Positions 12,081 to 54,592 of a stretch of DNA of 64,000 bases are shown here, piece by piece. Both the position numbers and the translations under genes were made by a program. Source of the DNA: an uncultured Chloroflexia bacterium (GTDB lineage: Bacteria > Chloroflexota > Limnocylindria > Limnocylindrales > CSP1-4); contig CAWCIK010000009.1 of assembly GCA_963795645.1 (NCBI GenBank), forward strand, positions 50,125 to 114,124, given 5' to 3'. Under the pieces are notes generated by a model. The model searched no databases, had not been told where the DNA came from, and worked only from the letters and a program-made list of their open reading frames with translations. Positions within the stretch are counted from its first letter, which is position 1. Each line of letters begins with the position of its first letter.

Positions 12081-12902
12081 TCAGGCGACGGCCGACAGCC
12101 AGCCCAGCCCGAGCAGGGCAATCCCGCCAGCCTCGAGCGACCAGCCCAGCTCACGAGTGCGGGCACTCTGGCGAGCCAGAAGAAAGAGGCCGATCAACGC
12201 GGCCGCAGACGCCGTGGCGACGGCCGGGCTGAACCGACCGCTGGAGATCGACAGCGTCAGCCAGGCCAGGCCGTAGATGACGGCGAGCAGCAGACCAATC
12301 GCAGCCATTGTTCGTCGCCGGCCGAGCCGCGTGGCCAGGGTGGCGATCCCGCTCGCCTCGTCACCCTCGAGATCGACCAGCCCGTTGGATAGCTGCAGCG
12401 CGGGTCCGGCCAGAATCGCGAGCGGGAGCAACAGCTCGGACAGCGGGGGCAGCGTGCCGATCGATCCGTACCAGGCATAGACCGGCAGGATCGCGAAGGC
12501 CACAGAGAAGCACGCCCACGCCCATGCGGTGCGCTTGAGGCGGAGGTCATACGCGAGTCCACAGGCAAGCATCGCCACCGCCATGGCCACCACCGTGATG
12601 CCGAGCGGAAGGGTTGCGATAAGGGCGACCGCCGCCGCGACGACCGCGATCGAGCGCGCGGCCGCTCGCGGGAGCAGGCCGGATGCGATGGGCTTCCACG
12701 CCTTCGACCGCTGATCGGCTTCCACGTCGCACAGGTCGTTGACCGTGCCGATGCAGAACTGGATGCCGAGCATGCCGACGGCCAGCAACGCCGCGGCCAT
12801 CGTGGACGCTCCCGCGACAGCGGCCAGGCCGAGCACGAGGGCAGTGTTGAGCAGGGACGGGAACGGATGGACGACGCGCAGGGCGCGCAGCCGGCTGGTC
12901 AT
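12081..12902 (-). CDS. UbiA-family prenyltransferase
   Basis: NDLCDVEAD..K..KPI and NGLVDLEGD aspartate-rich motifs; multiple TM helices. Confidence 0.85.
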   Translation of the reverse strand: MTSRLRALRVVHPFPSLLNTALVLGLAAVAGASTMAAALLAVGMLGIQFCIGTVNDLCDVEADQRSKAWKPIASGLLPRAAARSIAVVAAAVALIATLPLGITVVAMAVAMLACGLAYDLRLKRTAWAWACFSVAFAILPVYAWYGSIGTLPPLSELLLPLAILAGPALQLSNGLVDLEGDEASGIATLATRLGRRRTMAAIGLLLAVIYGLAWLTLSISSGRFSPAVATASAAALIGLFLLARQSARTRELGWSLEAGGIALLGLGWLSAVA

Positions 12903-12923
12903 CTAGCCGGCGAATGCGACGCG

Positions 12924-13289
12924 CTAGATGAAGACGATCTCTTCGAAGTTCGCGACCAGGAAGTCGACCAGCCGGCTGCGCGCATCGGCGAACACGGCGT
13001 GGGCACCCGGGACGAAATAGAAGAGTGATATGGCAGGGACCATGAGCTCGCCGCTCTCAGTCGTGCCAATGGCCGCCGCCGGCCCTCCCCCGGCCGTGTA
13101 GACGCGGCGCAGGCCGGCGTCATCCGTCCCGAGAGCATGGCGCAGCTCGGAGATCACTTTTCGGACTCCGGTGCGAATCGAGGTATCACGCATCAGCTCG
13201 GCGGCCCAGCCGTCGATGCGCTCATCGGGCTGTTCGTCGAGCCTTTCACGGTATTGCTGCGGGGTAGCCGAAAGGCCTGTCGCGGTCAA
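12924..13289 (-). CDS. Hypothetical cytoplasmic protein (121 aa)
   Basis: TTG start with GGAGG, protein-like composition, tight spacing to the ubiA-family gene. Confidence 0.7.
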   Translation of the reverse strand: MTATGLSATPQQYRERLDEQPDERIDGWAAELMRDTSIRTGVRKVISELRHALGTDDAGLRRVYTAGGGPAAAIGTTESGELMVPAISLFYFVPGAHAVFADARSRLVDFLVANFEEIVFI

Positions 13290-13408: not shown

Positions 13409-13633
13409 TCAATCACGTCTCACGAGACGCAAGGCCAGCACCGGGCAGGCCGCTACAGCGCGTCGCGCATAGGCCTCCAGCTGCGGCGAAACGTCGGCGC
13501 GACGCAGGATCGGATAGCCCCAATCGTCAAGCTCGATGAGCTCCGGCAGCAGCTCGGCACACAGGCCGTGGCCATCGCATTCGATCGGGTCGACCTCGAG
13601 CGTCCCGACGGATTGCGGCGCGACCATCTTCAT
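13409..13633 (-). CDS. Small ferredoxin (CxxHxxC...CP, [3Fe-4S]-type)
   Basis: VDPIECDGHGLCAELLP...AVAACPVLAL. Confidence 0.88.
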   Translation of the reverse strand: MKMVAPQSVGTLEVDPIECDGHGLCAELLPELIELDDWGYPILRRADVSPQLEAYARRAVAACPVLALRLVRRD

Positions 13634-13646
13634 CTCATGCCGCCCG

Positions 13647-14870
13647 TCATGCCGCGCGTGCTCGTACGCGAACACGACAGCCGGACCCGCGCAGATGAGA
13701 GTCGAATTCGTCACTGAACGTGCTCAGCGCCGACATCAACAGCCCGACTGCCCCATCGGGATGGCGGCAAGCGCCACGGCCATCGATCTGGGCGGCCCAT
13801 CGTTCGAGTTGGGCCACGTCGCGGCCCGTCGCGGCGCCAAGGGCCAGCGCGTGGGTTGTGTCGGCGATCGATCGGAGACCGAATACGCACGGCCCGCACT
13901 GTGCCGCGCTCTGGGCGGCCATGTAGTCGAGGACCGTGGCTGTGGCAGCGACGCCACAGGTGTCCGAGGCAAGAAAGCTGACCACCCCCGCTCCAAAAGG
14001 AACGCCTGCCTCGCGCAGCGTAGCCGGATCGAGCGGCAGGCCCCAGGCATCTTCGCGCGACGCCCAGCGACCGAAATATCCGCCAATCAGGACTGCGTCT
14101 GTCCCGTCCGCGCCGAGCCCGCTCATTGCCGCGAGCTCGCCGACGCGCGTGCCCAGCTCGATCTCGCGCACGCCACCGCGTGGAGCGCCGCTGACCGTGA
14201 CCAGAGCGGTGCCGCGCGTAGCCCCACGGCCCGCCTCGCGGTACCAGGCGTCTCCGAAACGCGCGATCAGCGCGGCGTGCGCGAGTGACTCGACGTTCTG
14301 GACGAGCGTCGGCCGATCGTCAATGCCGCGCTCGTAAGGCCGCGGCGGGATGACTGTGGGTCGAGCGTCGCCGACGTTGATGTAGTGAACTGCCGCGGAT
14401 TCCTCGCCTGCGACGTACGCCTCCGGCGCCACGACCATGCGCACCGAGACGGGCAGCCTGCGCCGCTCGGCCAGTGCGCGCTGGAGGGCGACTCGCGCGT
14501 CGAGGTGTGGCGCGCCGACATACACAACGATCTCGCTCGCGCCGACCGATGCCGCCGCAAGCAGCGCCCCATCGAGGACAAGGTGCGGGCGAGCCGTCAT
14601 CAATGTGCGGTCCTTGGCACTCAGGGGCTCCCCTTCCGCGCCATTGACCAGGACGCGCGCGTCTCCACCTGAGCGCTCCGCCACGGCGGCCCACTTGCGA
14701 CCGACTGGAAAGCCGCCACCACCGCGGCCGAGCAGGCCGCTGGCGGTGATTGAGGCGATGAGATCCCGTCGCGTCTCGGGGAGCCTCCCGAGTCGCTGCG
14801 TGTGGTTGTGAAGAGATTCCTGTCCGGCCGCGGCCGGAGGACCGGCAAGCACCCGAGGCTGATCCATCAT
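13647..14870 (-). CDS. Stand-alone NuoF/HoxF-like FMN- and NADH-binding Fe-S flavoprotein
   Basis: SGLLGRGGGGFP..RKW, NGAEGEP, YVAGEESA, QNVESL, QCGPC...GAC. Confidence 0.9.
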   Translation of the reverse strand: MMDQPRVLAGPPAAAGQESLHNHTQRLGRLPETRRDLIASITASGLLGRGGGGFPVGRKWAAVAERSGGDARVLVNGAEGEPLSAKDRTLMTARPHLVLDGALLAAASVGASEIVVYVGAPHLDARVALQRALAERRRLPVSVRMVVAPEAYVAGEESAAVHYINVGDARPTVIPPRPYERGIDDRPTLVQNVESLAHAALIARFGDAWYREAGRGATRGTALVTVSGAPRGGVREIELGTRVGELAAMSGLGADGTDAVLIGGYFGRWASREDAWGLPLDPATLREAGVPFGAGVVSFLASDTCGVAATATVLDYMAAQSAAQCGPCVFGLRSIADTTHALALGAATGRDVAQLERWAAQIDGRGACRHPDGAVGLLMSALSTFSDEFDSHLRGSGCRVRVRARAA

Positions 14871-15466
14871 CGATCGAGATCCCCGAACGGAGCAGGAGAC
14901 GTCCGTGACGCCGCTACCAGCGCGGGCAGCTGCTCACGATTGGTGCGCGCCGCGAACAGACGCCACGTCAGTGCCACCGCTACAGCCGCCACGCACGCGG
15001 CTTCGATGGCCAGCATCCAGGTCGAGAACGCGTCACTGCCCGACCCGGCGCTGTGCAGCACGGCCAGCGGCCAACCTGCGTAGGCGACCCAATGGACGGC
15101 GCGCCACGTGCGCTGGCCGATTCGTTCACGAAGCAGGCTGGTGACGATGATCGCGATGATCAGGTAGACCGAGATCACGCCGAGGCCGACCCACAGCGGT
15201 CGGTAGCTCGACGCGAATGGGATCAGCGCGGCGCTGATGCCGAGCTTTGCGAACGGGTCAAGGATGGCCGCGGTGATGTGGACGCCGACGAACACGACCG
15301 ACAGCAGGGCCAGGTTCGAGTGCAGGTCGGCGGTCAGGAAGCGCGGCCAAGTGGGCCTCTGCCAGCGAATGACGCTGATCAGACCGAGCACGGTCACAGC
15401 CGTAAGCAGGAGCAGCGAGACGATGCCTGAGCCGCGACTGGCAAACCACAGGAGCTGATCGCTCAT
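14867..15466 (-). CDS. Ferric-reductase-like (MsrQ-like) heme b transmembrane protein
   Basis: Several TM helices with four His (DLHSNL, GVHI, WRAVHW, VLHS); ATG 15466 overlaps the apbE stop. Confidence 0.85.
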   Translation of the reverse strand: MSDQLLWFASRGSGIVSLLLLTAVTVLGLISVIRWQRPTWPRFLTADLHSNLALLSVVFVGVHITAAILDPFAKLGISAALIPFASSYRPLWVGLGVISVYLIIAIIVTSLLRERIGQRTWRAVHWVAYAGWPLAVLHSAGSGSDAFSTWMLAIEAACVAAVAVALTWRLFAARTNREQLPALVAASRTSPAPFGDLDR

Positions 15467-16419
15467 GCTGCGTGGCGCTGGGCGCCGGCCAGATCCGGCG
15501 GCCAACCGGCCACGTAGGCAAGCGACCCGTCATTGGCGACCAGTCGCGCCGGAAGTTTCATGTCCTCGAGCCACGCCGGCGCCGCCGCACCCATGACGAT
15601 TGCGCCCGTGGCGGCTGTGTTGGCCGTTGCGCAATCGGCGGCCACGACTGTGGCGGTGCGCCACGGGCCATCGCACGGCCGGCCCGTACGCGGATCGATC
15701 ACGTGGTGGAGTATTTCGCCGTTGCGTCGCCAGCGGCGAACGGTGGTGCTTGAGGTGGCCAGCGCACCGTCGCGGATGACGGCCACCGGAGCGCCTGGCC
15801 GGCGAGCTGCGCCGCTGTCTTCGCCGAGCTGGATTCGCCAGCCACCTCGCGGCGGCCGGCCGGCAACCTTGATGTCGCCGCCGATCGAAACGAGCACGCC
15901 CGAGCTCGACGGCAGGAGCGCGGCCGCCGCGGCAGCGGCCAGGTCGACGACCAGTGCCTTGCCTGTCGAATCGAGATCGAGCTCGACGCCCCTGGGGACG
16001 CGCAGCGTACGCCGCGAGCGATCGAGCTCGATCGCCTGCCAGCCTGGAACTGCCTCGAAACGCATTGGCACCGGGCGCTTGTCGTCTACGGCGCGCAAAC
16101 GGGCGAAGTCACGGTCGTAGCCGATCATGCGAATCGCACGTCCAACGCTCGGATCGACCAGCCCGCTAGTCTCGCGGGCCGCCCGCAGAGCTGTTTCGAC
16201 CGCGACCGCGAACTGCTCGCTGATCACGATTCGCCTGCCAGGCGAGCGATTGACCAGGCTCAGCTCGGAGTCGTCCCGGAAGCGGCTGAATGAGTGGTCG
16301 GCGGCGTCGATCACCGAGCGCACCGCATCGAGGACCGCATCGTCATCGACCGGGCCGTCGCTCAGAACGACGTCCACGTTCGTGCCTATCTGTTGCCAGC
16401 TCGCGGAGCGCGTGGTCAT
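15463..16419 (-). CDS. apbE: FAD:protein FMN transferase (ApbE family), no obvious signal peptide
   Basis: FSRFRDDSELS, GLVDPSVG, LDL..TGKA, VSIGGDI, ALATSS, HHVIDPRTG. Confidence 0.92.
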   Translation of the reverse strand: MTTRSASWQQIGTNVDVVLSDGPVDDDAVLDAVRSVIDAADHSFSRFRDDSELSLVNRSPGRRIVISEQFAVAVETALRAARETSGLVDPSVGRAIRMIGYDRDFARLRAVDDKRPVPMRFEAVPGWQAIELDRSRRTLRVPRGVELDLDSTGKALVVDLAAAAAAALLPSSSGVLVSIGGDIKVAGRPPRGGWRIQLGEDSGAARRPGAPVAVIRDGALATSSTTVRRWRRNGEILHHVIDPRTGRPCDGPWRTATVVAADCATANTAATGAIVMGAAAPAWLEDMKLPARLVANDGSLAYVAGWPPDLAGAQRHAA

Positions 16420-16844
16420 CAGTGGGAGCCGCCGGTCGAGACGTGACTGCGCCGCCGAGTGGTCGTTGGCGGGTTGACGGCCGTCGGGCCGTTGTTGGCC
16501 GCTGTCCCGGGGGTTGGCGCCGCTTGTGTCGTCTGCGAGCCGTCGACCTGATTCGAATTCGTCGTGGATTCTGTTGTCTCGTCAGTCGTCGGACTGGTCA
16601 GCCGCTGGCCTGCCACGCTGTCGTCCCCAACGCTTGCCTCGCCGACATCGGCGGCCTGGCCGGCATCGGTCACTGGCGCATTGCCGGAGAAGGTAACCGC
16701 GGCGAGGCCTCCAAAGCCGACTGTGGCTGCGGCGCTGACGATGGCGGTTGCGGTGGTGAGGCGCGCGAGCCGCTCCAACGCCAGCTCGCGCTGGTTCGCG
16801 CGGTGTCGAAGCTCGTCGGCCGGACGCCTCCCCTCGGATCTCAT
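16419..16844 (-). CDS. Membrane-anchored low-complexity T/S/P-rich protein ending in HVSTGGSH (candidate flavinylation substrate)
   Basis: ATG 16844; basic N-terminus, hydrophobic segment TATAIVSAAATVGFGGLAAVTF, long T/S/P linker; TGA overlaps the apbE ATG (TGATG). Confidence 0.75.
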   Translation of the reverse strand: MRSEGRRPADELRHRANQRELALERLARLTTATAIVSAAATVGFGGLAAVTFSGNAPVTDAGQAADVGEASVGDDSVAGQRLTSPTTDETTESTTNSNQVDGSQTTQAAPTPGTAANNGPTAVNPPTTTRRRSHVSTGGSH

Positions 16845-16866
16845 TTGCCGATCTTGAGCGTCCAGA

Positions 16867-16894
16867 CTGAGAGAAGTCTGTGCGCCCGCTGTTC
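16867..16894 (-). promoter_or_regulatory. Three 11-bp-period direct repeats (OmpR/MprA-type site) upstream of the apbE operon
   Basis: Minus strand gAACAG-N5-gCACAG-N5-tCTCAG, followed by CAAGAT and an ATG 6 nt later. Confidence 0.5.
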
Positions 16895-17059: not shown

Positions 17060-18073
17060 TTAGGGGGTTTCGAGCCCGTGCACGTATTGGCACGGCGCGA
17101 ACCGCCCGTGCACAGAAACCGCCGAACCGAGATTGACCCATGCACCGGTGTCTGGGTTCTTGTAGCTGACGAGCACCTTGGTGCCCGGCTTCGCCCAATG
17201 CTCCCAGGTCCGATAGATCGAGCCACCCGGAACCCACCGGGACGCGACATGGGGCCCGGTTGTCGTGGTCCACTTGATCCTGAAACGGATCGTCGCATCG
17301 CTGCCGGTGTTGTCGAATACTCCGTAGTAGGCCGGGTCATTGCACGGACCGCCGACTCCACCGCCCGGGTTGTTGGTGTCGCAAGTCGCCTTGGTGATGA
17401 CGTTGGTGTCGAGCGTGACCGCCCCGTTGCGCGCTAGAGCGCGGCCCCTGAGCGTCGCTCCCGTCGTCATCGTGATCGACGTAAGCGCCATGATGTTGCC
17501 GACGAACGAGGTCGCCGTTCCGATGGTGGCCGAGCTGCCGATCTGCCAGTAGACGTTGCACGGCTGCGCCCCGTTGATCAGGCTCACGCGGCTGGACGAG
17601 GCCGTCGTCAGCGCGCTACCAACTTGGAAGATGAACCGTGCATCGGGGTCACCCTGCGCATTGAGGGTCAGCGTTCCGGTCAATCCAGCTGAGCTATCGA
17701 AGCAGTACACGCCCGCGGTGAGCGTCAGGCCGCCAAGGTCCTGGTCGGTGAGGTTGCTGTCGCAGGCTTGGCCGGCCGCGTTGTTGTACGCGGTCTTGAG
17801 ATCGGCCTTGGCCAGGGCAGCTGCGGCGTTTGCCGCATAGATGGTGCCGTTAACGATGCCCGGCGGAAAGCCGGTGACAGCGCTCCCAGGGCTGACGCCC
17901 AGATCGCCATTGATGACGCTCGGGCCGGTGTTGGTGACCGTCGAGCCACCGAGAACAGCGAATGCGCCGGACGTGCCCAGGCCAATCGCTGAGGATGCGG
18001 CGACGTTGCCGGCAAAGGCAAAGCCGAGCATGGCCGTGAGGACTAGAGTGACTGGTAACCGGCGTTTGACCAC
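17060..18073 (-). CDS. Secreted DUF3494 ice-binding family protein with an extra C-terminal domain
   Basis: Signal peptide, then LGTSGAFAVLGGSTVTNTGPSVINGDLGVSPG, DLGGLTLTAGVY, FIFQVGSALTT, NVYWQIGSSATIG, GRALARNGAVTLDTN. Confidence 0.92.
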   Translation of the reverse strand: MVKRRLPVTLVLTAMLGFAFAGNVAASSAIGLGTSGAFAVLGGSTVTNTGPSVINGDLGVSPGSAVTGFPPGIVNGTIYAANAAAALAKADLKTAYNNAAGQACDSNLTDQDLGGLTLTAGVYCFDSSAGLTGTLTLNAQGDPDARFIFQVGSALTTASSSRVSLINGAQPCNVYWQIGSSATIGTATSFVGNIMALTSITMTTGATLRGRALARNGAVTLDTNVITKATCDTNNPGGGVGGPCNDPAYYGVFDNTGSDATIRFRIKWTTTTGPHVASRWVPGGSIYRTWEHWAKPGTKVLVSYKNPDTGAWVNLGSAVSVHGRFAPCQYVHGLETP

Positions 18074-18311
18074 GTGGCACCCTTTCAACGAGCCCCCACT
18101 GCGCGAAAGCGGCGCGATCGTGGTGGATTTGAAAGTGGCCGCAGGCGGTCACCGGCTTGTTGGAAGACGATGGGCCTGCGCGGGTGCGATGCCTAGCCGT
18201 ACCTAAGCGTCACTGGCGAGGAACCTATGGCGGTGCGACCACGGCATCGCCAGGTTCTGACCAAGCGCGCCCCAAGAGAGAAGCGGAAGTGGTCGCGGCA
18301 CTCGGGGAAGC

Positions 18312-18386
18312 TGGCTCCGGCGGTAGGATTCGAACCTACGACCAAGCGGTTAACAGCCGCCCGCTCTACCACTGAGCTACGCCGGA
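18312..18386 (-). tRNA. tRNA-Asn (GTT)
   Basis: TCCGGCGTAGCTCAGTGGTAGAGCGGGCGGCTGTTAACCGCTTGGTCGTAGGTTCGAATCCTACCGCCGGAGCCA: cloverleaf, GTT anticodon, encoded CCA. Confidence 0.97.
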
Positions 18387-19259: not shown

Positions 19260-19866
19260 GTGACTGACCAGACTTCGAAAGAGCCCTCAAGCCCTGCGTA
19301 CCTCCCGCTGATTCGCGGTGAGCGCGTCTTCCTGCGTCCGGCCGAGAAGTCGGACGTGCAGACATTCGTGCGCTGGTTCGCCGACGCCGAGATGAGCGGC
19401 CTGCTCGGAATGCGCGCGCCGATGAGCGAGGCAATGGAGGAGCAGTGGTTCACGCGCGCCGTCGAGCAGCAGGGCAAGGAGAGCTACCACTTCGTGATGT
19501 GCCGGCTCGACAACAGCCAGCCCATCGGCACGATCAGCCTCTTCCACCTCGACCAGGTCAACGGCTCGCGCCGGCGTGGGCATCTCGATCGGCGAGAAGG
19601 AGCTATGGGGCAAGGGCTATGGCACGGACGCCATGAACGCTCTGCTCGATTTCGGCTTCGGGCAGCTGCGCCTGGAGCGAATGTGGCTCGACGTCTACGA
19701 CTACAACGCCCGCGCGCGCCGTTCGTACGAGAAATCGGGTTTTGTCATCGAGGGCACGCAGCGCCATGCCAACTACAGGCTGGGCAAATTCCACGACGTG
19801 CACCTGATGGCCATCCTTCGAGATGACTGGACGGCGTTGGACCGCAGGCGCTCGTGGGACTACTGA
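19260..19866 (+). CDS. RimJ/RimL-family GNAT acetyltransferase (one frameshift near 19570)
   Basis: GERVFLRP..., joined to GISIGEKELWGKGYGTDAM...NARARRSYEKSGFVIEG...DVHLMAIL. Confidence 0.88.
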
Positions 19867-51676: not shown

Positions 51677-54592
51677 ATGAAGAGACTCGGGTTCGAAAGC
51701 ACGCTTTTATGGCGCTTGCGGCCAGTAGCTTCAATCTTCCTCGCCGTAGCCCTGGCACTCTTGGCCCTTGGTGGCGGCTCGGCCCGGGCCGCGTTCCCCG
51801 GGACGAACGGCAAGATCGCGTTCGTCAGCGAGCGCGATGGCGCCGGCGCCGAGATCTACCTGATGGACTCCGACGGCTCGAACCAGACACGGCTGACGAC
51901 CGGCGGCTACTTCAACGCCGAACCGGCGTGGTCGCCCGACGGGACGAAGATCGCCTTCAGCCGAGTGCTTGGGCCGAGCACCACGGACATCTTCGTCATC
52001 AACGCAGACGGGTCGGCCGAAACCGCGCTGACGAACGACCCGGCGACCGACTCCAATCCGAGCTGGTCGCCGGACGGCAGCAAGATCGCGTTCGTGAGCA
52101 CGCGCGGCGGCGACACGGCGATCTACGTGATGAACGCGGACGGGTCGGGGCAGACCCGACTGGCAGGACCCGGCGGCAACCCCGGCTTTGGCGGGCCGGT
52201 CTGGTCGCCAGACGGCCAAAAATCGCCTTCGAACGCTACTGCTTCTGCGGGGTGGGCGACGACGGCGGCTTCGGCCAGCTCTACCTGATGGACGCGGACG
52301 GATCGAATATCACGCAGCTGACGTTCTACTACAGCGACGGGGACAGCCCCATCGATCCCAGCCACCCCTCCTGGTCGCCAGACGGGTCTCAGATTGCCTT
52401 CTCGGGCGAGGACAATGACCCGAACAACTCTCTCGTCGGGCAGATCTGGACAGTCAATGCCGACGGCACGGGAGAATCGCGGCTGACGACGAACCAATTT
52501 CCGGTCGACTACTCGTCCCCGGCGTGGTCGCCGGACGGGCAGAAGGTCGTCTTCCAGCAGCTCGGGTGCTGCGTGCCGCTGGTCAACGCCGACGTTCTCG
52601 TGGTGAACGCGGATGGCACGGACATCACTCGGCTGACGGACAACAGCGCCGCGGACTTCATGCCAGACTGGCAGCGGTCGTCGGCCGGCCCATCCGGCGA
52701 CGTCGTCGTCACCGACTGCAACGACCCGCAGCTCGCCCAGCTGACTGAGATCAGCGGCGACCTGATCATCGATGACCTGCCCGGCTGCGATGCCATCAGC
52801 TTTCCCCTGCTTACAACCGTGAGCGGCGCCATCCACATCACCGGAACGGCCGCCACCGTCATCGACCTCAGCTCTCTGACTACCGTGGGCGGCGCAATCG
52901 ACATGTCTCACAACGCCTCTACGACGGTCATCGACCTGAGCTCATTGGTCACCGTGAATGGCACCATCAACATGGCCGACAACGCATCCGTCACGGTCAT
53001 CAACCTGAGCTCGCTGGTCACCGTGAGCGGCGCAATCGACATGGCCGACAACGCATCCACCAACGTCGTCGACATCAGCTCGCTGGTCAGCGTGAGCGGC
53101 TCGATCGACATCTCCGCCACGGCCGTGAAGTTCTCCTCGCAGGTCACCGTCACCGGTGATGTTGGCATCGAGACTGCTGGAACGACGGTCGCCATGGGCG
53201 GGGTGACCACGGGCGGCAACGTGACGCTGACAGCGGACGGCTCGGACTCCGTGTCGGCACAGACAGGCGGTGGAACGACGGACGTGAGCGTCCTCGGCGG
53301 AACGGCCTCGATGCAGGTTGTCCTCCCAGAAGGGGCGTTCGACCAGCCGGTCGCGTTCACGGTCGAGCGCCAGGGCGACGTCCCGATCGAGGACGGCACG
53401 GCAGCGGATGGAACCGCAGCCCAGATCGACCCGCTGGCCGGCTACCAGTTCAGCTTTGCCGTCCCGACCTTGAACGCCGATGCGCAGCTTGCCTTCACGA
53501 TCGACCTTGCCCAGCTCGATGACGCTACCAGGGCGGCCCTTCTCTCCGGTGTGGACGATGGCAGCGCGGCACTCGTGGTCAAGGGCGATGAGCCCGGACG
53601 CCGCCTACCAGGCGTTCGCCCGATGCACCGATGGGCAAACGCCGGAGACGGACGGATGTGCCACTGTTGCGCTGCTCGGCGGGGACGGCCAGCCGGTCGC
53701 ACAAGCTGCCGACGCAGCCTCCGTACGCTTCAGCGGCGTCGCCGGTCACTTCTCCACCTACGCAGTCGCGCTCGTCACGGTCTCGGACGACACGACGCCT
53801 CCGCTCGTCACCGGCGTTCCGGACCGGGCGCCTAACGCGAACGGCTGGTATCGAGCACCGGTGACGATCGACTGGCAGTCGAGCGATGACAGCGGGACCG
53901 CGAGCGATCCTGCGGATACGAACGCAGCAACCGAGGGCGCTGACGTCGCCTACACGAGTGCAGAGAGCTGTGACCCGTCCGGCAACTGCGGAACTGGCTC
54001 GCTGAACCTGTCGCTCGATTTGACGCCCCCGACCGTCAGTTGCCTGACCTCCACGCCCAAGTTCATCCTGCGCGCCACCGACCAGACCGTTGTGGCGGAT
54101 GTCACCGACGCACTGTCGGGCCCCGCCAACGCATCAGCGTCGGCTCCCGCCGACACCACCAGCGTCGGGGCCAAGACCGTTGAGTTGACCGGCGAGGACC
54201 TGGCCGGGAACACGACGACGCTCGACTGCCCGTACCTGGTCACATTCGCCTTCGAGGGCTTCTCCGCGCCGGTGCAGAACGACCGCATTCTCAATGTGAT
54301 CAAGGCCGGGGCCGCAGTGCCGCTGAAGTGGCGCTTGACCGACGCCAACGGGGTCCCGGTCACCAATCTCGCCTCGGCCTCCGTCACCGTCCATGGCATC
54401 ACCTGCGACGCTGGCACCACCGAGGATCAGCTCAATGAGACTGTCGCCGGCAGTTCCGGCTTGCAGAACCTCGGCGACGGCTACTACCAGCTCAACTGGA
54501 AGACGCCGAAAAGCTATGCCGCCTCGTGCAAGAGGCTGCAGCTCGACCTGGGCGATGGAATCGACCGAACGGCACTGTTCAAATTCAGATAG
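51677..54592 (+). CDS. Large secreted protein: TolB/PD40 beta-propeller, L-domain-like solenoid, Ig-like domains, C-terminal PxKF-type domain (frameshifts near 52222 and 53593)
   Basis: [11 protein letters not shown], five WSPDG repeats, 23-aa repeats, [15 protein letters not shown]...[10 protein letters not shown]...YYQLNWKT. Confidence 0.85.
52861..53115 (+). repeat. 69-bp (23-aa) intragenic tandem repeat
   Basis: Units begin at 52861, 52930, 52999 and 53068: IDLSSLxTVxGAIDMxxNASxxV. Confidence 0.88.

Follow-up and report, generated by a model that had tools for sequence, protein, structure and literature searches.

A fold-less, membrane-anchored tail as a candidate flavin carrier in a conserved ApbE, cytochrome and NuoF-like cassette of Chloroflexota

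The closest described relatives of the system studied here are MsrQ-like flavinylation clusters, of which the Meheust 2021 census (PMC8238504) reports 1,797, 31 of them with a NuoF-like gene. In that subtype apbE lies by a gene for a two-heme PF01794 protein with six helices and by a PF10589 NuoF-like gene, a gene for a flavin mononucleotide (FMN)-binding domain is typical, VIT1 neighbours occur in a subset, as they do here beside plasmid copies, and electrons are proposed to flow from NAD(P)H (reduced nicotinamide adenine dinucleotide or its phosphate) to the outside; clusters entered the census only if ApbE or a known substrate had a predicted signal. We analysed a 64,000-nucleotide stretch from an uncultured Chloroflexia bacterium (assembly GCA_963795645.1, contig CAWCIK010000009.1, positions 50,125 to 114,124; hereafter the window) that holds a five-gene cassette of this kind, encoding a small membrane-anchored protein, an ApbE-family flavin transferase, an MsrQ-like cytochrome, a NuoF-like flavoprotein and a ferredoxin (Table 1). 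It has a PF01794 gene within five genes of apbE, four histidines in the cytochrome and a PF10589 NAD(P)H input; that the cluster type is already published was missed by a first-pass annotation of this DNA. It has no PF04205, DUF2271 or DUF3570 substrate gene and no signal or lipidation site on ApbE or a known substrate, and unlike the published systems it combines the absence of an FMN-binding domain with a signal-less ApbE, a cytochrome that reads as five helices and an added ferredoxin. The best reading of the sequences is that the small protein would be a leashed FMN tag with no fold of its own, which a remodelled ApbE loads in the cytoplasm, and we consider it quite probable that its tail is flavinylated.

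The small protein ends in VSTGGSH and, as the first-pass annotation had described, joins a single anchor and a T/S/P-rich disordered linker to this terminal peptide with no folded FMN-binding domain: a Pfam and NCBIfam scan at E 0.1 returned no family, and the AlphaFold2 model (47-row alignment; mean predicted local distance difference test score (pLDDT) 63) consists of one helix, residues 8-51, and no other secondary structure. The linker, measured at 80 residues (55-134) where about 85 had been estimated, holds S/T/P at 30 of 80 positions and S/T/P/A/G at 48 of 80; it cannot be aligned among homologues, in which 24-115 residues (median 62) follow the helix. As the linker is unconserved, selection acts on the two ends of the protein. 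A tail-free profile restricted to the N-terminal helix and the membrane segment, with 21 seed rows chosen by their tails and one weaker row dropped, was searched against 10,833 open reading frames (ORFs) from 115 loci at E < 0.01. It matched 64 distinct proteins, and all 64 end in [STG]G[GAS]S followed by 0-3 residues, including 42 of 42 matches from non-seed loci, compared with 47 of 10,764 other ORFs of the same loci and 136 of 42,302 ORFs of the bacterium's own genome. The C-terminal (S/T)GGS of the small protein, on which the earlier proposal had been made to depend, is conserved far beyond chance.

The neighbourhood of apbE gives a similar picture. Among 29 relative apbE loci, 20 have a similar small ORF directly upstream that ends in [STG]G[GS]S, one has a related tail, one is cut off and seven have no adjacent small ORF; in six of these seven a strong small-protein homologue lies 2.6-4.3 kilobases (kb) away, and for the seventh it lies beside a second apbE match on another contig. 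An extra set of 20 NuoF-centred loci, drawn from further families of the phylum and with L056 represented again, gave 17 profile matches at E 0.05; 16 of them end in the motif, and the remaining one is an ORF that lies within the NuoF-like gene and antisense to it. Four loci of this set without a profile match carry the tails SGAS (L235), TGASGVP (L243), TTTS (L245) and RSRSS (L246), and canonical SGAS tails are found in L233 and L244 as well as L235. Full-length profiles, which unlike the tail-free one use the tail itself, matched 73 proteins, 70 with the motif; at E 0.001 they gathered 1,448 clusters (50% identity), which may include low-complexity false matches, with the motif in 144 of the best 150. 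Across 284 distinct family members the motif is present in 275, with the pattern H/V/Q-A/V-T/V/S-S/T-G-G-S, and stands exactly at the C-terminal end in 184. The 275 have S/T in 271, G in 275 (fixed by the pattern used) and Ser at the acceptor position in 274; counting the plasmid tails given below, the wider tail rule is [ST]-x-small-S at the end.

Pfam placed none of 25 other tail proteins above its curated cut-off, while a control FMN-binding protein passed, and matches in the ESM Atlas (scores 0.92-0.93, commonest phylum Actinomycetota) are unnamed 'hypothetical protein' clusters only. Longer family matches that were inspected (14 of 150) proved to be start-site extensions, one partial duplication and fragments, with no fusion among them, although no search was aimed at longer proteins. 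We rejected a lipoprotein, as only 4 of 284 members have a Cys within the helix or beyond it, and Tat export, given a Tat-like motif in 11 of 284; the pattern applied follows TatFind. Two Asn-type cassettes (L055, L062) have an upstream protein ending CHSTPSHPC, in which two Cys flank the S/T motif.

The small gene follows one ApbE clade. Sorted by two metal ligands, 172 apbE loci comprise 73 of Asn..Thr, 65 of Glu..Lys, 30 of Asp..Thr and 4 of other types, the enzyme in the window being Asn..Thr. In a FastTree phylogeny, which gave a long-branch warning among Glu..Lys rows and which omits two broken rows, a single group with support 100 unites the Asn..Thr sequences of Chloroflexota, Dormibacterota and Actinomycetota plasmids, Asp..Thr is one group and Glu..Lys needs three changes. 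Within these loci, which range from 2 to 11 kb, an FMN-binding domain, sought with one query, is present in 19 of 30 Asp..Thr loci, 1 of 73 Asn..Thr and 0 of 65 Glu..Lys, while a membrane-anchored low-complexity ORF ending [STG]xxS, detected by a loose filter, is present in 5 of 30, 61 of 73 and 60 of 65, respectively. The tail protein fills the slot of the FMN-binding protein, and the two are in mutual near-exclusion.

Presence across genomes agrees with this. Among 201 genomes of the class, this ApbE clade (E < 1e-60) occurs in 29 and a strong small-protein match (E 2e-14 or better) in 28; all 28 fall among the 29, and the 29th has its apbE at a contig edge. None of the other 172 genomes, which include two flagged as unpublished (G106 and G151), has a strong match, and 15 more genomes have only weak ones (E 5e-6 or worse). 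The presence count is partly circular, the profile having been built partly from these genomes, and kin are not independent, whereas the absence from the 172 is not circular. Nine genomes have a cassette locus without apbE; eight of them hold an ApbE elsewhere (E < 1e-54; six Asn type, one Glu type, one unparsed), and the ninth, a draft, has a distant ApbE only. Gene order is shuffled among cassettes, the small gene lying before apbE, before the cytochrome gene, after the ferredoxin gene or divergently, and the small gene stays. Second copies of it are found after ferredoxin and two-component genes or far from the cassette (L029, L043, L044, L057; G116, G068, G083, G179, G002).

We propose that the cassette encodes a split conduit for electrons from NAD(P)H to the surface, with the small protein docked on the cytochrome and bearing one covalent FMN on the last Ser of its outside tail; for this full arrangement we see an even chance. 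From homology, the NuoF-like flavoprotein would oxidise NAD(P)H, and from the fixed gene pairing it would reduce the 3Fe-4S ferredoxin. Electrons would then pass from ferredoxin to an inner and on to an outer heme across the membrane, as the four invariant His of the cytochrome suggest. The small protein is predicted to supply an extra membrane helix to the cytochrome, with its tail on the outer side. The signal-less ApbE with its remodelled site would place FMN on Ser140, probably in the cytoplasm before Sec export of the unfolded tail, and the tethered FMN could swing back and forth from the outer heme to an electron acceptor located in the wall or beyond it, for instance Fe(III) or a redox protein encoded elsewhere.

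Several observations weigh against this reading. The association of ApbE type with tail is strong but rests on few independent events, because each type is largely one clade, and under the loose filter 12 of the 73 Asn-type loci have no tail and five canonical loci do. The enzyme itself raises the main doubt. It matches PF02424 with 164.6 bits over model positions 2-258 of 266 and gives full-length matches to the structures from V. cholerae (6nxi), T. pallidum (4xdt) and T. maritima (1vrm) at E 6e-25 to 1e-17. Alignment with them sets His239 at V. cholerae His257, Ser223 at Ser241 and Asn267 at Asp285 (T. pallidum Asp284). Ser241, His257 and Asp285 form the conserved catalytic centre of the V. 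cholerae enzyme (PMC12052999), and Asn holds the Mg-binding Asp position in 73 of 73 members of this clade, a substitution that the first-pass annotation missed. In T. pallidum Ftp, D284A abolished FMN transfer and T288A also kills activity (PMC4436053). The tail, too, departs from D-x-x-[ST]-G-A-[ST] at two positions: the canonical Ala is Gly here and in 258 of 275 members (Ala in 9), and position -6 has no Asp, with His here and H, V and Q in 113, 83 and 36 of the 275.

One rival explanation takes these departures to mean that the Asn-type ApbE is not a working FMN transferase, with non-covalent binding of flavin adenine dinucleotide (FAD) or of the peptide, or with other chemistry such as FAD hydrolysis or adenosine monophosphate (AMP) transfer, the tail end serving as a docking or assembly signal. 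We regard this as unlikely. Ser223, His239, Asp182 and Thr271 are present in 73 of 73 members and Lys154 in 72 of 73, which argues for kept chemistry; the mutant tested was Ala, not Asn, and the passages on T. pallidum Ftp activity in PMC4436053 mention no Asn mutant of the metal-binding Asp. On the substrate side, T-G-G-S retains the [ST]-G and the acceptor Ser of the canonical motif, Ser at that position is nearly invariant, and canonical TGAS/SGAS tails occur beside Asn- and Glu-type enzymes. Work on ApbE tagging found that a 7-residue tag suffices and is best at a protein terminus, that loss of the motif's Asp has a minor effect and that Ser is accepted (PMC12052999). Because the other catalytic residues are invariant, a retuned enzyme appears to fit better than a dead one.

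The compartment of the reaction is a further difficulty. The first-pass annotation was right that this ApbE has no signal peptide: the domain model begins at residue 12 (model position 2), which leaves no room for a leader, and neither it nor its homologues have a hydrophobic one. The trait is not special to the tail, however, as it is also the rule beside ordinary FMN-binding proteins of the class, where the canonical ApbEs of 30 loci likewise begin directly at the domain; cytoplasmic ApbE is a general puzzle of these systems and not evidence against the tail. Cytosolic ApbEs that modify cytosolic targets exist (PMC12052999). In Salmonella a cytosolic ApbE was unable to replace the periplasmic one, and loading in the cytoplasm would need post-translational export, because the terminal residue leaves the ribosome last.

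An outside tail is favoured by the predicted assembly with the cytochrome. The MsrQ-like protein, encoded directly after apbE, matches PF01794 with 32.8 bits against a cut-off of 28; His49, His63, His125 and His138 are invariant in 45 of 45 rows, giving two predicted heme sites, and it reads as five helices, the sixth being predicted from the small protein. A complex of small-protein residues 6-62, the cytochrome and two hemes scored 0.74, compared with 0.00 for the best of three controls; in benchmarking, 116 of 157 solved and 2 of 215 mismatched pairs reached that score, counts that are only a rough guide where own alignments and ligands are used. Runs agree in at least 83% of contacts, with partner pLDDT of at least 75. 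The modelled helix lies along cytochrome transmembrane helices TM1 and TM2, with residues 18-22 (including Arg19) against the Arg-rich loop 38-44 of the cytochrome and residues 51-53 against its residues 4-9. We take the side of residues 4-9 in this model to be the outer one, on which His63 and His138 would bind the outer heme, and the small protein is supported as a cytochrome subunit with its tail outside. The score is, however, the model's own confidence, to which likeness to solved six-helix cytochromes b may contribute. In 272 of 284 members the residues preceding the helix carry a higher net charge than those that follow (mean +3.4 and -0.7, respectively). A cytoplasmic tail, which had been named in advance as fatal to the proposal, is thus not what charge bias and modelled orientation indicate: both put it outside.

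The same segment could instead be a cleavable Sec signal, its removal releasing the flavinylated tail as a soluble flavopeptide that shuttles through the cell wall. Its moderate hydrophobicity (mean best Kyte-Doolittle 1.78) and Ala-rich end (GLAA, ALAY), fitting the A-x-A rule, would suit such a signal. We find it rather improbable, as three phyla share the conserved N-terminal helix, in which Arg19 never varies, and the predicted complex sets this helix against cytochrome TM1/TM2 as far as residue 53, beyond the needs of a disposable signal.

The donor side proposed by the first-pass annotation is supported in part. The NuoF-like protein, nearest to HydB and NuoF chains (E 6e-48), keeps the FMN/NADH motifs GRGG and NGAEGEP (N-x-x-E-x-E-P). 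What had been overlooked is that the first Cys of its C-x2-C-x2-C...C N3 site is replaced (QSAAQCGPC), as in all 72 rows shown of 76 homologues, and that the ferredoxin is of a predicted 3Fe-4S type. GRGAC is followed by HPDG, which comes after the last Cys in 66 homologues, and the cluster would have three Cys ligands, as a 3Fe-4S centre or with His as an additional ligand. The second ferredoxin ligand is non-Cys in 75 of 76. Ferredoxins of this kind have been isolated as 3Fe-4S proteins with potentials of -340 to +230 mV, His types on the positive side, and the M. tuberculosis His-type protein lies at -31 mV (PMC6237146). We infer that a fairly positive ferredoxin would favour flow away from NADH; by the same argument flavin reduction may be uphill and depend on membrane potential or on a higher flavin potential, which counts against the scheme. 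The chain is consistent with the four invariant His and the kept NuoF-like motifs, and no NuoE/NuoG or hydrogenase subunit gene was found among the scanned cassette neighbours.

Two more findings speak against a dedicated outward chain. In 17 of 80 loci, two of which are truncated, the NuoF-like and ferredoxin pair has no membrane genes with it, and because of this the pair can serve elsewhere as a module. A clustering of 2,379 ORFs from 79 loci, noisy from shadow ORFs, shows no recurrent acceptor or iron transporter next to the Chloroflexota cassettes; it yielded a two-component cluster in 41 loci, a YceI-like one in 5, and lineage synteny. The YceI-like gene (PF04264) often adjoins the cassette, in some cases directly before apbE (L070, L073, L079, L027, L028, L030). 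Neither cytochrome nor apbE occurs in the 5 kb upstream of the pair in L039, L047, L054, L059, L061, L063, L065-L067, L069, L072, L075, L078, L082 and L087, of which L039 and L063 keep small membrane genes upstream.

Such solitary pairs invite an explanation in which electrons move inward, or in which there is no single chain: the cytochrome and tail would take electrons from outside or from quinol, and the NuoF-like protein and ferredoxin would be a general NAD(P)H:ferredoxin reductase, for P450s for example. Ferredoxins with the same motif do serve P450s in Mycobacterium (PMC6237146), and other tail-type cassettes have other cytosolic partners. This is quite improbable in our view, since the NuoF-like gene is present in 64 and the cytochrome gene in 71 of 73 Asn-type loci and the genes are translationally coupled here, an FNR-type NAD(P)H domain takes the same slot in sister modules, the fairly positive ferredoxin would sooner draw electrons away from NADH than return them, and 3 of 7 plasmid loci have VIT1 iron transporter genes as neighbours. 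Least probable is a flavin arm on the cytoplasmic side that shuttles between the NuoF-like/ferredoxin pair and the inner heme, which would explain the signal-less ApbE of the clade and recall the cytosolic targets of known cytosolic ApbEs, as it conflicts with the positive-inside bias of the family, with the predicted orientation that sets the N-terminus by the cytochrome's Arg-rich loop and with the signal-less ApbEs found beside membrane-anchored FMN-binding proteins in the 19 canonical loci.

Beyond the window, related cassettes appear in several forms. The closest cassettes are from Chloroflexia, Candidatus Limnocylindrales and Dormibacterota, and plasmids of Actinomycetota carry the same five genes at 6 of 7 loci, in Rhodococcus, two Arthrobacter, Mycobacterium sp. 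JS623, Gordonia and Cnuibacter, with Asn-type ApbE and the tails RSAGS, ATRAS, TTRAS, ISHGS, HTAAS and TTKGS. The plasmid loci with VIT-family (VIT1) genes (L118, L120, L122) also have DUF2231 and two-component system genes alongside, and the L122 and L124 copies lie within metal-regulator and transporter regions. Stalks beside Glu..Lys ApbEs comprise a predicted coiled coil with canonical TGAS/SGAS, Pro-rich tails TTQSG or FTHVS and short tails RSHGS. The coiled-coil stalk (membrane helix, coiled coil, terminal TGAS/SGAS), which has no Pfam family above cut-off, stands upstream of Glu..Lys ApbE in L139-L142, L144, L147, L148, L155, L164, L168, L180 and L183.

The genome of the window holds three designs: an FMN-binding-protein module, a Glu..Lys tail module and this cassette, and its only PF04205 match is on another contig than the cassette. 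The second module (L117/L003, G000:C6 about 51800-53800) has a cytochrome-FNR, a membrane-anchored FMN-binding protein with VSGAS and a signal-less Asp..Thr ApbE, and adjoins a histidine kinase gene. The third (L116 4127-7941, G000:C6 about 1379100-1382900) has two small membrane proteins, the second ending KTRQSGHP, followed by Glu..Lys ApbE, cytochrome, ferredoxin and an FNR-like gene, with a divergent two-component system. More tentatively, and with somewhat less than even confidence, we suggest that Asn..Thr and Glu..Lys ApbE clades flavinylate in the cytoplasm the last Ser of fold-less, membrane-anchored tails on unrelated stalks (S/T-rich, Pro-rich or coiled-coil); such a tail would be exported unfolded, its helix becoming the sixth of a five-helix cytochrome, as a surface flavin wire in Chloroflexota, Dormibacterota and Actinomycetota, and these would be widespread unrecognized natural flavin tags.

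In the window itself, the five minus-strand ORFs claimed as tightly coupled are confirmed, with overlaps of 1, 4 and 4 nt at the first three junctions in 5' to 3' order; the ferredoxin gene does not overlap its neighbour and follows a 13-nt gap. The first gene is present as annotated except for its start, which had been placed near 16894 and is most likely the ATG at 16844, the same start as in homologues P0027 and P0004. Third-position GC is 0.75-0.81 in each of the five genes, and a promoter and terminator scan found none.

Table 1. Features of the cassette, in coordinates of the window
Feature	Position	Strand	Evidence or description
Small protein, 141 aa (first gene)	16419..16844	-	ORF; Arg-rich N-terminus, long helix ending in membrane segment, then a linker of low complexity and HVSTGGS-H at the terminus
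ApbE-family flavin transferase, 318 aa	15463..16419	-	PF02424 E 4e-48
MsrQ-like (ferric reductase-like) membrane protein, 199 aa	14867..15466	-	PF01794 E 8e-8, predicted diheme cytochrome b
Stand-alone NuoF/HydB-like flavoprotein, 407 aa	13647..14870	-	PF01512 E 4e-31 and PF10589 E 1e-16
Single-cluster ferredoxin, 74 aa	13409..13633	-	PF13459; C-x2-H-x2-C...CP; predicted 3Fe-4S type
Conserved amphipathic helix and membrane segment of small protein, residues 8-53	16686..16823	-	Invariant Arg19
T/A/P/G/S-rich linker of small protein, residues 55-133	16446..16682	-	Unconserved, without predicted secondary structure
Terminal motif H-V-S-T-G-G-S, residues 134-140	16425..16445	-	Ser140 is candidate FMN acceptor
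ApbE Asn267 codon (AAC)	15619..15621	-	Aligned with V. cholerae Asp285 and T. pallidum Ftp Asp284

Downstream of the ferredoxin gene, across a 119-nt gap, lie a gene for a 121-residue hypothetical protein and one for a UbiA-family prenyltransferase (12081-13289, minus strand), which we rejected as cassette members as they recur only in two relative loci, L038 and L042. Between the cassette and a tRNA-Asn gene (18312-18386, minus strand), whose 3' end could be an integration site, is an ice-binding-like gene (17060-18088, minus strand; PF11999 E 2e-70) seen in none of the relative loci fetched. Two overlapping ORFs in different frames at 19260-19866 (plus strand) look like one gene split by a frameshift, which we take to be an acetyltransferase.

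The ApbE substrates known so far are folded domains or else tails attached to folded flavoenzymes, and a fold-less class would be dropped by the signal-peptide or known-domain filter described in the published census (PMC8238504). If the tail is flavinylated, the missing substrate would be named for many orphan apbE genes, on the scale of the 1,448 clusters with their possible low-complexity false matches; a natural counterpart of the engineered flavin tag, with a different motif, would be in hand; ApbE variants with altered metal chemistry would be defined; and the question would arise of how a cytoplasmically modified chain gets exported. The conduit, if real, would offer abundant uncultured lineages a minimal route for surface electron transfer or iron reduction, and the same cassette is carried by culturable Rhodococcus and Arthrobacter strains.

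Like other ApbE/Ftp transferases, the enzyme keeps the catalytic His and Ser, the GK Lys, the GGD Asp and the second metal ligand Thr; unlike them it has no lipoprotein signal and has Asn for the Mg-binding Asp, with Glu..Lys in related tail-associated clades. MsrQ-Fre of E. coli and the NOX and ferric reductases have a transmembrane core with two hemes that receives electrons from a separate NAD(P)H dehydrogenase in the cytosol, a plan that the cassette shares, while here there is no MsrP partner or FAD/NADPH domain and the donor is the NuoF-like protein with its 3Fe-4S ferredoxin. The nearest parallels to the tail are FMN_red proteins, whose flavinylation sites were verified on an unstructured C-terminal extension (Huang et al. 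2024, PMC11334425), and the engineered 7-residue tag (PMC12052999): both place the ApbE site on a disordered terminal peptide, from which the flavin is thought to reach a binding site elsewhere. In those cases the tail is attached to a folded flavoenzyme or is man-made and its motif is canonical, whereas here there are an anchor and a leash only, with [ST]GGS at the very end. A literature search, with most subscription journals outside its scope, found no account of a domain-less [ST]GGS substrate or an Asn-type ApbE, although supplementary file 1 of PMC8238504 may list some of the clusters. The cassette is real, conserved, mobile and of a known kind; its fold-less flavin carrier is probably of a new kind, and its flavin transferase is altered.

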